From Escherichia phage N2, in sequence record ON645936.1: DNA of 64,000 nt. One strand, given 5' to 3'. This document shows positions 1,270 to 5,058 of the stretch, in pieces (the first letter of the stretch is position 1; every line of letters starts with the position of its first letter). The notes below the pieces were generated by a model. The model did no database searches. It was given only the letters and a program-made list of their open reading frames with translations, and was not told where the DNA came from. Both the position numbers and the translations under genes were made by a program.

Positions 1270-1725
1270 TTAAAAGAGGCTGTTCATTATTCGGTAAAGT
1301 GAAGGACCCATCACATATTGCCACTGAGTACGAGGAATAAGAGCAAAAGCATCCATCTCTGGAATCATAACACCATCTTTATTTTCAAAATAAGACTCGC
1401 AATGGCAATTTCTAAACATCTCATGCTCTACTGGAATCGTATAATAAAATAACTGTAAGTCTTTATTACTAGAATATTTAAATACACCTAGGTCTTCTAG
1501 AAGGTCTGGATTATAATTGCTAAAACCAGTCTCTTCTAAACATTCTCTTCGTGCTGCATCTAGTGCGCTTAAATCAGAACTTTCTACACGACCCTTTGGA
1601 ATATCCCAGCGATGGGCCATCATTCCAGGCTTACGAGAACCGGTAACCCGACCCATAAATAAATCTTTATCTTCTGTCATAAAGATAATACCAGCTGATA
1701 ATGTTTTCATTTTAATTTCCTGCAT
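1270..1725 (-). CDS. nudE: Nudix hydrolase
   Basis: 151 aa; Nudix box GRVESSDLSALDAARRECLEETGF; position next to e as in T4; alternative RBS-supported start at 1710. Confidence 0.85.
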   Translation of the reverse strand: MQEIKMKTLSAGIIFMTEDKDLFMGRVTGSRKPGMMAHRWDIPKGRVESSDLSALDAARRECLEETGFSNYNPDLLEDLGVFKYSSNKDLQLFYYTIPVEHEMFRNCHCESYFENKDGVMIPEMDAFALIPRTQWQYVMGPSLYRIMNSLF

Positions 1726-1898
1726 TCAGTAATAAAGTTATTTAAATTTTGAGTATATTTCTTTTCATCAAAAATCTTTTGTTGTCTGCGTAGCCGCCAT
1801 GGCATTTCAATGAACGTGTACCATATCCCAGATAATATTGCTGCTGTAAAAATATTAACAAGTATGGTTAAAAGAATCCAATCTCCTATTCTGTCCAT
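1707..1898 (-). CDS. Small membrane protein (e.2-like), hypothetical
   Basis: 63 aa ORF, ATG start, one predicted TM helix (WILLTILVNIFTAAILSGIWYTF). Confidence 0.55.
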   Translation of the reverse strand: MDRIGDWILLTILVNIFTAAILSGIWYTFIEMPWRLRRQQKIFDEKKYTQNLNNFITECRKLK

Positions 1899-2196
1899 TG
1901 GATTTTTTATAAAAAAAGTAAAATACGAATGATGTCACAGGAAGACTAATAATATACCACAGAATCATAATTTTATCTGTGAACCAATCAGCGTTCGTTA
2001 ACTTAGCGCGACCATTATGAATACACACGAATTTATCATCTGTTGCAGTAGATGGCTTAACTGGTTGATATCCCATTCTAAACTCCCTAATCAGCAAATT
2101 TTTCATATCTTCGGAACAGCCATTCCAGTCAACTCTATCAACTGGAATGCCATCATCCCCATCATCTAAATCATACCAGCGAGTTTTTAAAATCAT
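1855..2196 (-). CDS. Hypothetical protein (e.3-like)
   Basis: 113 aa ORF in the compact minus-strand early gene array; hydrophobic C-terminus. Confidence 0.5.
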   Translation of the reverse strand: MILKTRWYDLDDGDDGIPVDRVDWNGCSEDMKNLLIREFRMGYQPVKPSTATDDKFVCIHNGRAKLTNADWFTDKIMILWYIISLPVTSFVFYFFYKKSNGQNRRLDSFNHTC

Positions 2197-2567
2197 CTGA
2201 TTTTCCTACAATCACTCACAAACTCTTTCATTGATTCATTTTCAATATAAGACATGTAGTTATTATATTCTTTTAATTGTATTTTGTAATCCTTTTTTCT
2301 TTGCCAATTTATTTTAAAATTATCATAATGAAAATATAAAATAATACCAAAGAATGAAAATAATGAAATCGCTATAGTATAATGAAGTTCACTCCAAACT
2401 TCTATTATATCTACTATACCAGTGACGTTACTATTGATGTTTAAAATAAAACAATCAATTAACAGTCCAATAAGACTACCCGCAAGAGCTGCAAATACTG
2501 ATACGGCAAGAATTAATAGTGCCTCAGGAAACGAATATTTGACTTTATTTAGTTTTGGCTTTTGCAT
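2193..2567 (-). CDS. Hypothetical membrane protein (e.4-like)
   Basis: 124 aa ORF; two hydrophobic segments; start overlaps next ORF stop. Confidence 0.55.
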   Translation of the reverse strand: MQKPKLNKVKYSFPEALLILAVSVFAALAGSLIGLLIDCFILNINSNVTGIVDIIEVWSELHYTIAISLFSFFGIILYFHYDNFKINWQRKKDYKIQLKEYNNYMSYIENESMKEFVSDCRKIR

Positions 2568-2962
2568 CGTGATTCCTTAACAAATTTCATAATTTCGTTA
2601 AATTCATACGCAGCGAGTTTAAGCTGGTGTTCCTTTTTAATCTTTTTACACTGAGCTTTCCATTCACGTACGCGTTTACGATAATGTCTTCCTTGATACC
2701 AGTATCCTACCCAATTTACAGGTACTAATAAAAGCGGAATTATTAATGGAAGAATTAGCGTTGCTCCAAATATTACACCGGATTCAATATCAGTCATAAC
2801 GTCTATAACCATTCCAGCAATCAGCAGAATCACAAATGATACAGCTACCACAGGACCCATTAATACATCAGTAGAAATTATCTGGCGCTTTAGTTCATAC
2901 TTCAAAGGTTTACTTGGAAGGTATAGTGATGGCTTTGACATATTCTCTACATTCCTTAACAA
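2549..2962 (-). CDS. Hypothetical membrane protein (e.5-like)
   Basis: 137 aa ORF; two TM-like segments (VVAVSFVILLIAGMVIDVM, GATLILPLIIPLLLVPV). Confidence 0.55.
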   Translation of the reverse strand: MLRNVENMSKPSLYLPSKPLKYELKRQIISTDVLMGPVVAVSFVILLIAGMVIDVMTDIESGVIFGATLILPLIIPLLLVPVNWVGYWYQGRHYRKRVREWKAQCKKIKKEHQLKLAAYEFNEIMKFVKESRCKSQN

Positions 2963-3518
2963 ATTTTTCTAATAATAAATCGCTTTCAAAATTAGGATTT
3001 TCTACGAATTTATCAAAAAGATCATCAACAATAGTAAAGATATTCTTTTTACTAAGAATACGCTTATTTTCATATTTTGTTTCAGAGTCAACTATAAGAG
3101 TAAAGAAATATTTCTTTCCCTGAAATTTTACTGTAGTATCAATATAAAATAAATTTGACTTTTGTAAATTACGTCTAAACCCCGCGTCACTTAAACTATA
3201 AACGCCAAGATAATCATAATCGTCGTTTAAATAACAAACTGTCCATTCAGGAGAAATGAAATCAGTAAATTCAACATCAAAATCACATGTCAATGAATGA
3301 ATTGATTCAATACTGTTAATAAGTATTCCAGGACGTATTAAAGACTTTTTACCTCTAGAAAATCTTCCAGAAAGGCTTTCATCAGTTTCATACGAAGACC
3401 CCCAATAGTAATTACGTCCTTCTGCCATACGTTTAAGAGCATTTAGTAATTGGTCTGGAACATCAACCTGTCTTTGGAACTCTTCAAACATTGAATTGAA
3501 ATCATTTTGCATTTTCAT
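2910..3518 (-). CDS. Hypothetical protein (e.6-like)
   Basis: 202 aa ORF, no recognisable motif. Confidence 0.55.
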   Translation of the reverse strand: MKMQNDFNSMFEEFQRQVDVPDQLLNALKRMAEGRNYYWGSSYETDESLSGRFSRGKKSLIRPGILINSIESIHSLTCDFDVEFTDFISPEWTVCYLNDDYDYLGVYSLSDAGFRRNLQKSNLFYIDTTVKFQGKKYFFTLIVDSETKYENKRILSKKNIFTIVDDLFDKFVENPNFESDLLLEKFVKECREYVKAITIPSK

Positions 3519-3539
3519 TCCTATTTACTCCAAGTAATA

Positions 3540-3553
3540 GGGGCCGAAGCCCC
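3540..3553 (-). other. GC-rich stem-loop (GGGGCTTCGGCCCC on minus strand), putative RNA stability or terminator hairpin
   Basis: Perfect 5-bp stem with UUCG tetraloop between two minus-strand ORFs. Confidence 0.4.
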
Positions 3554-3559
3554 TTATCA

Positions 3560-4153
3560 TTATTTCAGAGAATTAATATATTCCTGAATATCGGCAGAGG
3601 TGGTTTCAACCCCAGAAATATTACCGTTAAAGGTTTCAACTCGAGCAAGAGTATCTTCAATATCAACCTTAGTTAGCGCTGCGATTTCAACTACATCATC
3701 AGCAGTACTAATTCCAAGGGCATTTGCCGCACGAGTTTCACGGATATATTCCAATTTAACTGCAAGTTCTTGGCGAGCATCATCTAACTCAACTACTTTC
3801 TTGGCGATTTCAATTCGCATTTCAGCATAACCATCAGCTTTAGTAGTCAACTGCTCAGCTGTTCGACGATATAGCAAACCGAGTTTAGCGTGCATTGTTA
3901 CATCTTGACCTTCGGAAAGAAGTTTACGAATTTCACGCTCTTTTGATTCAGCCTGTCTATTCTTTTCGACAATAAGTTCACGAATACGTTTTTCTTCATT
4001 AATAGATTTAACAGAAGCAGTTTTTAAGTCTTTAATTTTATCAAGTAGTTTTGCTGCTGCAGCAGTATACTGTTCTTCAACAGATAGATTTTTAGCCATA
4101 GCAGAACCAAGTTTAGTGCGAATAAACTCAACAATTTTCTTCAGTGTGTTCAT
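3560..4153 (-). CDS. Coiled-coil protein with PspA/IM30-like character (e.7-like)
   Basis: 197 aa; long heptad-like charged helices ([43 protein letters not shown]); PspA resemblance judged by eye only. Confidence 0.5.
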
Positions 4154-4196
4154 AGTATTTCCTTAGGTTGATTAAAAATTAAAATCTGTGGAAGAA

Positions 4197-4727
4197 TTAT
4201 ATCATGCTATTTAAGAGATGTAAACTATTTTTAATTTTACAAATTCGTTCAGCTTCTTCAACAGCGGCGGCGATAATGCTTTTAGCTATAGGAGTACTAA
4301 TACTAGTAGCTTTTACACTTAACACGATTTCTTTATCTTTACCAGGCCAACCCCACGATTTTTCACCGTGAGTGCCTTTAATTACAGCAGACACCTCAAG
4401 TGAGCATCCATTATCATATGTTTTTACATTAACAACCCAAGGGTCACTTTTCTCAATCGGTTTCTCAATCGGTTTATCCCAGTAAATATTAAGAATACGT
4501 GGGATATCAAATTTGGCAGGACAAATCTTAACCGTAAGACCTTCGCTTTCTAGCCAATTAATAAGAGGGCGTTCATACAGACGACGATGTGGGCTTGGGA
4601 TTCGACAAGCCTTATGTCCGTTGCTTGCGGCTTCACTAAGCTGTTCTAATACCTGCTTTTGCATTATTGATAAGATACTATCAAAAGATTTTTCGGAAGT
4701 TTCATTCAGTTCGGTATAAAGAGACAT
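4197..4727 (-). CDS. Hypothetical protein (e.8-like)
   Basis: 176 aa ORF preceded by an early-type promoter. Confidence 0.55.
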   Translation of the reverse strand: MSLYTELNETSEKSFDSILSIMQKQVLEQLSEAASNGHKACRIPSPHRRLYERPLINWLESEGLTVKICPAKFDIPRILNIYWDKPIEKPIEKSDPWVVNVKTYDNGCSLEVSAVIKGTHGEKSWGWPGKDKEIVLSVKATSISTPIAKSIIAAAVEEAERICKIKNSLHLLNSMI

Positions 4728-4752
4728 AACAGTTTCCTCAAATTATAGGCTC

Positions 4753-4782
4753 ATAATATCTCAATCATGAGCCTATGTAAAC
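4753..4782 (-). promoter_or_regulatory. T4 early-type promoter (GTTTAC-N17-TATTAT) embedded in an inverted repeat
   Basis: Minus strand reads GTTTAC ataggctcatgattgag ATATTAT; sits between two ORFs. Confidence 0.5.
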
Positions 4783-5058
4783 TTATTTCATATTATTGAA
4801 ATATTCTTCTGCGATTTCGTCGTTATCATGGTAAACTTTAGAAGACAGTTTAACATAACCTTCTGCTGTGAACATGTTAATCACAACTTTTACAGTATAC
4901 CATTGACCATCTTCATTACCCATTACTGCGTAAGTTTCAAACATCGGATGGTCAGGACCGATGACTTTAATATCATTCACTGTACGACCGAAATCTTCTG
5001 AAACGCATTTCATAAAGAAGTTGAACAGTTCGCCGTAATTATCCATTTTATTCTCCAA
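4783..5058 (-). CDS. Hypothetical small protein
   Basis: 91 aa ORF with GGAG RBS; preceded by early-type promoter. Confidence 0.55.
   Translation of the reverse strand: MENKMDNYGELFNFFMKCVSEDFGRTVNDIKVIGPDHPMFETYAVMGNEDGQWYTVKVVINMFTAEGYVKLSSKVYHDNDEIAEEYFNNMK

Follow-up and report, generated by a model that had tools for sequence, protein, structure and literature searches.

Locus and gene content

The stretch of DNA analysed here, referred to as the window, comprises 64,000 nucleotides of Escherichia phage N2 (sequence record ON645936.1), and the subject of the analysis is the array of small early genes at positions 1707-5058. All genes in the first 8 kb of the window lie on the minus strand, in the order denV, e (lysozyme), nudE, eight small open reading frames (ORFs) and a tRNA cluster with segB within it. 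The 3.5-kb array is 94-96% identical in nucleotide sequence to hundreds of Tequatrovirus (T4-like) records in GenBank. It is the early-gene cluster e.2-e.8 of a Tequatrovirus phage, located between nudE and the rnaC/tRNA cluster; in the T4 reference (NC_000866) the equivalent interval holds e.2, e.3, e.4, e.5, e.6, e.7 and e.8, with rnaC, rnaD and the tRNAs after them. Orthologues of the T4 genes (T4p125-T4p131) are present for e.2, e.3, e.4, e.5, e.6 and e.8, in the same order and on the same strand, with the amino acid identities by BLASTP given in Table 1. The slot between e.8 and e.6 does not hold e.7, as the ORF of 176 amino acids (aa) found there has no similarity to T4 e.7 by BLASTP. 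The cluster is already known and very common in T4-like phages, where it carries no assigned function.

The first-pass annotation had described this interval as eight ORFs of 63 to 202 aa. Their coordinates and lengths hold (63, 113, 124, 137, 202, 197, 176 and 91 aa, the fourth and the last being 130 and 87 aa long if counted from ATG), but the gene count does not: there are seven genes, since the 63-aa and 113-aa ORFs are the halves of a single 162-aa gene, e.2. Both match adjoining parts of phrog_2203 (the 113-aa ORF covers positions 1-107 and the 63-aa ORF positions 106-166), and the gene is unbroken in phage Nami. The dense packing with overlapping starts and stops is borne out by ATGA junctions at e.3/e.2 and e.2/nudE and by overlaps of 19 nucleotides (nt) between e.4 and e.3 and of 32 nt between e.5 and e.4. 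The possibility raised in the same annotation, that all the ORFs are conserved with T4 e.2-e.8 and already have functions, applies to conservation in all genes bar one and fails for the functions.

Searches with Pfam, NCBIfam and PADLOC (defence-side profiles) and against PDB sequences gave nothing significant for any ORF of the array, in line with the earlier statement that no catalytic motif is recognisable; the resemblance of e.6 to PspA, described below, is non-enzymatic. The description of these ORFs as small genes without an assigned function likewise agrees with the T4 annotation, in which e.2-e.8 are still hypothetical or predicted membrane proteins. Some public records label e.6 as 'host specificity protein', e.3 as 'sulfurtransferase' and e.5 as 'phosphoserine phosphatase'. 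None of these labels finds support in Pfam, NCBIfam, PDB or fold searches, and for this reason they look like propagated annotation errors. In T4, the RNAs of all seven e.2-e.8 genes belong to the early class and all seven proteins have been detected, with e.4, e.5, e.7 and e.8 classed as early proteins, e.2 and e.6 as middle and e.3 as late (PMC9697503 supplement).

Table 1. Genes and regulatory features of the e.2-e.8 cluster in the window. Percentages are amino acid identities to the T4 orthologue; TM, transmembrane; motif positions run in the direction of the gene.
Feature	Coordinates	Strand	Remarks
e.2, frameshifted	1707..2196	-	86%; N-terminal soluble domain and TM helix 1 (ORF 1855-2196), TM helix 2 and tail (ORF 1707-1898); two predicted TM helices, basic tail; motif FITECR at 1736-1719
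e.3 orthologue, 124 aa	2193..2567	-	83%; 606 records; two predicted TM helices, basic tail; motif FVSDCR at 2222-2205
e.4 orthologue, 130 aa	2549..2941	-	85%; phrog_2604; 678 records; two predicted TM helices, basic tail; variant motif FVKESRC at 2584-2567
e.5 orthologue, 202 aa	2910..3518	-	94%; phrog_2607; soluble, acidic; motif FVKECR at 2963-2946
UUCG tetraloop hairpin between e.6 and e.5	3539..3554	-	GGGGC-UUCG-GCCCC; no U-tract here
e.6 orthologue, 197 aa	3560..4153	-	99%; remotely PspA/Vipp1-like (IM30, ESCRT-III superfamily)
Third early promoter	4196..4224	-	TTTACA-N17-TATAAT, TG-extended; 11/12 matches; in the 3' end of the 176-aa gene, before e.6
176-aa gene in the e.7 slot	4197..4727	-	RB32 ORF130c type; two domains; phrog_6869
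PeSL-type element	4745..4782	-	early promoter GTTTACA-N17-TATTAT (4782-4753) and perfect 10-bp stem, arms 4776-4767 / 4754-4745
e.8 orthologue, 87 aa from ATG	4783..5046	-	99%; phrog_2678; acidic, pI 4.5
Early sigma-70-type promoter upstream of e.8	5090..5119	-	GTTTACA-N17-TACTAT, TG-extended; fits TTTACW-N17-TAYWAT

The e.6 protein and the C-terminal peptide of its neighbours

The most widely kept member of the cluster is e.6. Of 50,697 phage records, 1106 contain it, at identities as low as about 30%, and their hosts include Escherichia, Klebsiella and Aeromonas; e.6 is thus among the most widely conserved non-structural ORFs without a known function in T4-like phages. Sequence searches of the PDB found no relative of e.6, and no functional work on it was found in the literature. 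Its AlphaFold2 (AF2) model, computed with 32 homologues (confidence score pLDDT 76), consists of a helix at residues 2-22, a long hairpin (25-80/86-145) and three short helices. Both the amphipathic N-terminal helix and the long coiled-coil hairpin (alpha1/alpha2-3) are present in this predicted structure, and the hydrophobic moment of the N-terminal helix is 0.45, as compared with 0.42 for alpha0 of PspA. When the model was compared with the PDB by Foldseek, the eight top matches were all Vipp1 or PspA structures (E-values of 2e-3 to 1e-2), and the archaeal ESCRT-III protein CdvB2 was among the next ranks. Among the viral models of BFVD, its matches were e.6-like proteins from other myoviruses and, as a weak hit, a protein of Acinetobacter phage ME3 annotated as PspA/IM30.

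Comparison of sequence profiles bears in the same direction. The e.6 family profile aligns with Vipp1 in register (4-142 versus 4-144), at a score that is not significant. With hhalign, an alignment of 71 e.6 sequences gave 17% against enterobacterial PspA alone and 86.8% (P 4e-6) after a single Synechocystis Vipp1 had been added to the target, over 170 collinear columns that pair e.6 1-176 with PspA 1-172. The score of the real pair (43.1) exceeded that of the reversed sequence (20.0) and those of 40 block shuffles (20.6 +/- 4.9, maximum 36.7), while a rotation control provided no true null, as the best local alignment always returned to the true register. On the evidence of the structural model and the profiles, e.6 can be credited with a PspA-like fold and with profile similarity to PspA. 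This resemblance is not new: in the 2021 genome announcement of phage Metamorpho, an e.6 homologue was noted to align to PspA (4WHE) with an HHpred value of 99.9% (PMC7862958).

In the BFVD search, the e.6 fold was also met in proteins some 200 aa long from Erwinia phage phiEa2809, Klebsiella phage UPM 2146 and Serratia phage Muldoon (E-values of 1e-6 to 7e-5, 22-27% identity), one of which is labelled 'tail completion protein'. The family of e.6/PspA-like proteins may be wider than HMMER shows.

The neighbours of e.6 have in common a short peptide at the C-terminal ends of the proteins encoded after it: e.5 ends in ...KFVKECREY..., e.4 in ...KFVKESRCK..., e.3 in ...EFVSDCRKIR and e.2 in ...NFITECRKLK. 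A search for F[IVL]x[ED][CS][RK] in the six-frame ORFs of the whole 64-kb window found four occurrences, all of them at the C-termini of e.5, e.4, e.3 and e.2, where chance would place about 0.1 near C-termini. Throughout the T4 genome, F[IV]xxC[RK] is found exactly three times, in e.5, e.3 and the remnant of e.2, and a relaxed form adds e.4 and an internal site in nrdH. Comparison by hhalign supports a relationship of the tail of e.3 with those of e.4 (P 5e-5) and e.2 (P 8e-6), but gives no such support for the whole proteins.

The motif is also kept at the C-terminus of the gene that follows e.6, and of neighbouring transmembrane (TM) proteins, in Mosig-, Dhaka-, Klebsiella, Moon- and Aeromonas T4-likes. 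Where e.6 is 50-87% identical, the next gene ends in FIxECREY, FIKYCRK, FINLCRD, FVDYCRR or FINYC, and in the same distant phages the neighbouring TM proteins end in FIKECK, WIRSCRK, FIENCK or FIAKCR. Among 16 aligned proteins from the e.5 position, the invariant residues are just N98, F186 and C190, the last two belonging to the motif. At the level of sequence, this C-terminal motif is specific to the cluster and conserved; as far as could be found, it had not been remarked upon before.

The motif could instead be a feature of the nucleotide sequence at gene junctions, that is, a Shine-Dalgarno or coupling signal, or a short recombination repeat, with no function in the protein. Some features of the window would suit this explanation: the motif codons for K-E (AAGGAA) or C-R-K (TGYAGGAAA) double as the Shine-Dalgarno sequence for the overlapping gene that follows, and a stretch of 13 nucleotides, TTTGTTAAGGAAT, is identical at the junctions after e.5 and e.4. 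However, the invariant F and C fall outside the Shine-Dalgarno part, differing synonymous codons are used for F, I/V, C and R over 23 genes, and the motif does not arise at other coupled junctions of the T4 genome. Furthermore, it is kept where there is no overlapping downstream gene, the next start lying 30-68 nt further on (Riv-10, the second G2 copy and the 102-aa ORF of Roth01), which makes a pure Shine-Dalgarno or coupling reading unlikely, even though part of the motif doubles as a ribosome-binding site in the window. An origin at the nucleotide level is very improbable, and the motif is taken below as a peptide selected in the protein.

Variable genes, early promoters and the PeSL junction

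The first-pass annotation had proposed a comparison of gene presence and absence across T4-likes, and this comparison reveals a plastic region in which e.2 and the e.7 slot vary among phages. The e.2 gene is unbroken not only in Nami (162 aa) but also in wV7 and in the loci L003, L005 and L006. Alignment with Nami places one extra T in the window, where a run of seven T (1917-1911) stands in place of six. An 81-nt probe over the site matches 279 phage records, of which just one (CJY920) has the seven-T run; the remaining matches listed are 80 nt long, at 98.8% identity, and have one base less. As it reads in this record, e.2 is inactivated by a homopolymer frameshift. A more likely origin than programmed +1 frameshifting at the T-run is a mutation or an error in sequencing the homopolymer, given the single occurrence of seven T among the 279 records and a next zero-frame codon that is no known hungry codon.

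The lesion in T4 is a different one, with five A in the adjoining A-run and a second indel, all within the tract T6-AT-A6. Downstream of it, an unannotated 51-aa ORF at 67472-67627 (minus strand of NC_000866) ends in NFITECRKLK and represents the out-of-frame 3' remnant of an e.2 that once had 162 aa. This remnant lies in the 160-bp 'gap' between nudE and e.2 of the reference annotation. From these comparisons, the tract looks like a mutational hot spot, or a site of sequencing error, in a dispensable gene. In locus L004, a contig that is otherwise T4-like, e.2 is deleted, so that e.3 abuts nudE (6938, plus strand), and e.5 is frameshifted into ORFs of 145 and 93 aa (5636-6251, plus strand).

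The slot between e.8 and e.6 occurs in three forms according to the phage: it holds T4 e.7 (183 phage records) or the 176-aa type (340 records, 164 of them full length), or it is empty. Comparison with L004 and L005, which have nothing between e.8 and e.6, defines the inserted cassette of the window as 4734-4201, consisting essentially of the 176-aa ORF and a few flanking bases; in T4, the unrelated e.7 lies at the same breakpoints. The breakpoints 4734 and 4201 are next to the hairpin of an element that combines an early promoter with a stem-loop (PeSL), and cassette exchange has taken place at this PeSL junction in the e.7 slot of the window. The N- and C-terminal halves of the 176-aa protein each also match separate PHROGs, and N-only and C-only forms exist as separate genes in other T4-likes. 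Structure prediction had been suggested as a further check; the AF2 model of the 176-aa protein (pLDDT 72.8, pTM 0.42) gave no significant match among PDB folds, with weak partial matches to R3H- and S8-like structures (E >= 0.18). The ORF of e.8 opens at a TTG (5058); e.8 is found in 596 phage records, and sequence searches of Pfam and the PDB returned no relative of it. Both e.8 and the 176-aa gene are probably accessory cargo, each acting independently.

Three further observations concern this slot. The interdomain linker of the 176-aa protein carries a direct duplication, KPIEKPIEK (4446-4472, minus strand), at a spot where many close homologues are 4-6 residues shorter. Relatives of the protein, P0049, P0050 and P0065 carry the precomputed label PF26862.1, which a Pfam scan of them left unconfirmed, as it gave nothing. 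In locus L008, whose e.6 is 87% identical to that of the window, like RB69's, an extra ORF of about 75 aa (MATVSIDVVDYEY..., ~4650-4990, plus strand) lies between the 176-aa-type gene and e.6, and is followed by ATTTACA-N17-TATAAT within a GAGAGC...GCTCTC stem, an arrangement suggestive of a further cassette bounded by PeSL elements.

The two GTTTAC promoters reported in the first-pass annotation are exactly where it placed them (4753..4782 and 5090..5119), and its claim that several genes have early promoters of their own is strengthened by a third site that it had missed (4224-4196). Early expression is further supported by the early class of the T4 orthologue RNAs. The third promoter is a better match to the consensus than the two GTTTAC sites; wV7 has an annotated promoter at its position, and T4, L005 and L008 have a promoter-like site before e.6. 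Promoter-like matches across the region number 27, as compared with 18.8 +/- 4.2 in shuffled sequences; because this excess is modest, support for the promoters comes from their position and conservation. All three sites fit TTTACW-N17-TAYWAT, the consensus of the PeSL promoters of the T4/PST pair (PMC4122927).

The combination of promoter, stem-loop and indel boundary is present at 4745-4782, while 5090-5119 and 4196-4224 match the promoter part alone; the former of these has no stem-loop and lies downstream of the RNA C terminator hairpin (5281-5258). At 4745-4782, the GTTTAC directly follows the e.8 stop codon, and the stem is formed by the inverted repeat ATAGGCTCAT ... ATGAGCCTAT, which overlaps the -10 box. 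As RNA, the hairpin has a predicted energy of -18.8 kcal/mol (z -4.4), and none of 200 shuffles folds as well. The repeat is kept in T4, L004 and L005 and, from a reading of the sequence by eye, apparently also in L008, with changes in both arms. For T4-type phages, PeSL arrangements like this have been put forward as a route of modular shuffling (PMC2839356, PMC4122927). Between e.6 and e.5, a hairpin sequence identical to the UUCG tetraloop hairpin of Table 1 has been listed after e.6 as a rho-independent terminator in T4-type genomes (PMC5931544). Inspection of the sequence before e.5 by eye revealed no convincing middle promoter of the MotA type.

Two side observations were made in the surroundings of the cluster. 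The genes denV and e are just 59 nt apart (680-738), and the phage therefore lacks at that site the ipII and ipIII of T4; Nami has one internal head protein gene there. At 5331-5424 (minus strand), ARAGORN predicts a 94-nt 'tRNA-Lys (ttt)' that stays below the gathering score of the Rfam tRNA model (eight tRNAs versus nine), at the position of the stable RNAs rnaC and rnaD in T4.

In an alternative explanation, which takes up the view of the first-pass annotation, the cluster would be a loose set of unrelated, independently acting accessory genes, active for example in host takeover or anti-defence and dropped into a hyperplastic region by PeSL recombination, with the motif and the synteny as residues of tandem duplication. 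The e.7 slot has at least three states, e.2 may be intact, frameshifted or deleted, three separate early promoters and a PeSL junction punctuate the cluster, and no enzymatic domains were found by Pfam and NCBIfam. The early non-essential regions of T4 are known to hold anti-defence genes, such as ipI, arn, dmd, 57B/acb1 and vs.4/acb2, and in T4 ipI and 57B lie a few kb from the cluster. However, e.6, the e.5-like gene and the motif-bearing TM proteins stay adjacent across lineages in which e.6 is 50-60% identical, and e.5, e.4, e.3, e.2 and nudE are translationally coupled. The motif is under protein-level selection and, in T4, unique to these genes, which is hard to square with independent functions, and the defence-side profiles of PADLOC found no match. 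Applied to the cluster as a whole, this explanation is a serious one and still rather unlikely.

A putative membrane-maintenance module and its relation to known systems

The PspA likeness of e.6 and the motif shared by its neighbours point to a linked, membrane-associated module and not to a set of unrelated anti-defence genes. The reading tentatively preferred here, with a confidence somewhat short of even, is that the e.2-e.8 cluster combines an early membrane-maintenance module, made up of e.6 and the motif-bearing proteins, with cargo that is exchangeable through PeSL junctions. Transcription by the host sigma-70 RNA polymerase would start at the three T4-type early promoters, which precede e.8, the e.7-slot gene and e.6, respectively. 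Beyond e.6 and its UUCG hairpin, e.5, e.4, e.3, e.2 and nudE would be read as one translationally coupled block. The conserved core would thus consist of the PspA/Vipp1-like e.6, the soluble e.5 and the predicted two-TM inner-membrane proteins e.4, e.3 and e.2 with the motif on the cytoplasmic side, and would act early in infection in the upkeep or remodelling of the inner membrane. Within it, e.6 may bind and stabilise the cytoplasmic membrane and the proton-motive force during infection, as PspA, LiaH and Vipp1 do, while the motif-bearing proteins may recruit, regulate or anchor e.6, or serve another common partner. The exchangeable cargo would be e.8 and the e.7-slot gene, bounded by PeSL junctions and swapped between phages as cassettes.

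A more specific version of this proposal is that T4-likes have a Psp-like system of their own, in which a viral PspA/ESCRT-III-type e.6 docks via F-[IV]-x-x-C-[RK] of the two-TM proteins e.2, e.3 and e.4 and of the soluble adaptor e.5, preserving membrane integrity and the proton-motive force early in infection. In this detailed form the proposal is speculative and, on balance, improbable. If true, such a system could act against membrane-depolarising abortive-infection effectors or against the phage's own membrane insults.

Several observations weigh against the membrane-maintenance module. With regard to e.6, the Foldseek E-values are marginal (2e-3), and long helical hairpins draw spurious matches. 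The protein does not match Pfam PspA_IM30 (PF04012), falling short of the gathering threshold and giving no hit even at E <= 1, and a profile search over 1.84 billion representative proteins returned 45 clusters of e.6 type alone and no PspA. The PspA target profile is thin, being composed of E. coli-like sequences and one Vipp1 (taken from a PDB alignment); it is shallow because a homologue search and genome scan with E. coli PspA gave just proteins more than 83% identical. With regard to the neighbours, comparison of the e.2-e.5 families with E. coli PspB, PspC and PspD by hhalign gave nothing credible (the best, e.4 with PspB at 35%, was driven by the TM segments), and Pseudotevenviruses (RB43, EBPL) have a divergent e.6 without any motif-bearing neighbour. 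The motif may bind a partner wholly other than e.6. Individual members of the cluster are dispensable, as e.2 has decayed repeatedly (in the window, T4 and L004) and e.5 is frameshifted in L004. Finally, no paper giving the e.2-e.8 genes a function was found in the literature, in which gene names such as 'e.6' search poorly.

The same membrane proteins could be given a role in lysis control or superinfection exclusion, with e.2, e.3 and e.4 resembling class II holins/antiholins or Imm/Sp proteins and e.6 as their modulator; they would then time the permeabilisation of the membrane or bar the entry of DNA from later phages. Their predicted topology, with two TM helices and basic cytoplasmic tails, is compatible with such a role, as is their position immediately upstream of the lysozyme gene e, in the coupled block that includes nudE. 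Membrane lesions could plausibly be kept in check by a PspA-like protein, and in T4 the e.3 protein accumulates late. The transcripts are nevertheless of the early class (PMC9697503 supplement for both), searches of Pfam, NCBIfam and PHROG gave no similarity to holin or Imm families, and T4 has elsewhere the holin t, the antiholins rI and rIII, the spanins pseT.2 and pseT.3 and the exclusion genes imm and sp. This role is considered quite improbable, and membrane maintenance is retained as the preferred function of the core.

An anti-defence role is conceivable, above all for e.8 and the 176-aa gene as cassette genes, and abortive infection that targets the membrane might itself be countered by a module that protects the membrane. 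The interpretation given in the first-pass annotation, that early arrays of this kind hold host-takeover and anti-defence genes, is therefore partly supported, being reasonable but generic. As sequence, this is a standard and much-sequenced T4-type region, and the finding as first written adds little. The added value is modest and lies in the convergence of the PspA likeness of e.6 with the motif shared by its conserved neighbours, by which seven hypothetical proteins are brought under one concrete hypothesis, that of a phage-encoded membrane-maintenance module. It bears on the long-standing questions of how T4 maintains an energised host membrane while it takes over the cell, inhibits lysis and faces abortive infection.

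Among known systems, the closest is the T4 cluster itself (e.2-e.6 and e.8; T4p125-T4p129 and T4p131), with which the window shares position, order, strand, overlaps and promoters. It differs in the lesion of e.2, in the gene that occupies the e.7 slot and in the length of e.3 (124 aa, as opposed to 120 aa in T4). For the occupant of that slot, the reference is the RB32 ORF130c-type protein (wV7 AEM00797, HY01_0124; phrog_6869), which is 90-99% identical and located in the same position between e.8 and e.6, although the KPIEKPIEK duplication of the window copy is absent from many homologues. With the PeSL cassettes of T4-type phages (Arbiol 2010, PMC2839356; Comeau 2014, PMC4122927), the element at 4745-4782 has in common a promoter and a stable stem-loop, placed directly after a stop codon and at an indel boundary. 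It differs in that only one of the three promoters of the cluster has a stem-loop, and its stem (ATAGGCTCAT) is not of the AGNA...TCNT form frequent in the PST/T4 pair (PMC4122927).

In comparison with PspA and Vipp1 (E. coli PspA 4WHE; Synechocystis Vipp1 7O3W and 6ZVR), e.6 is set apart by an identity of about 14%, with neither a PF04012 match nor a HMMER bridge, and by a shorter part after the hairpin, in which three short helices are predicted instead of the long alpha4 and alpha5. It is also phage-encoded and expressed early, with no pspF-type regulator or pspBC homologue nearby. The predicted features that it shares with them are an amphipathic alpha0, about 20 residues long, and a hairpin that turns near residue 83 and ends near residue 145, together with a C-terminal ...V-x-E-Y-L-x-S-L-K that a global alignment pairs with ...I/V-x-E/D-x-L-A-x-L-K. 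As regards the Psp and Lia modules (PspA with PspB/PspC; LiaH with LiaI), the membrane proteins of the cluster show no homology to their partners (PspB, PspC and PspD were compared), and we know of no counterpart of the F[IV]xxC[RK] tail in either. The arrangement is nonetheless alike, in that a PspA-like, presumptively peripheral protein is encoded beside small membrane proteins with predicted cytoplasmic tails.

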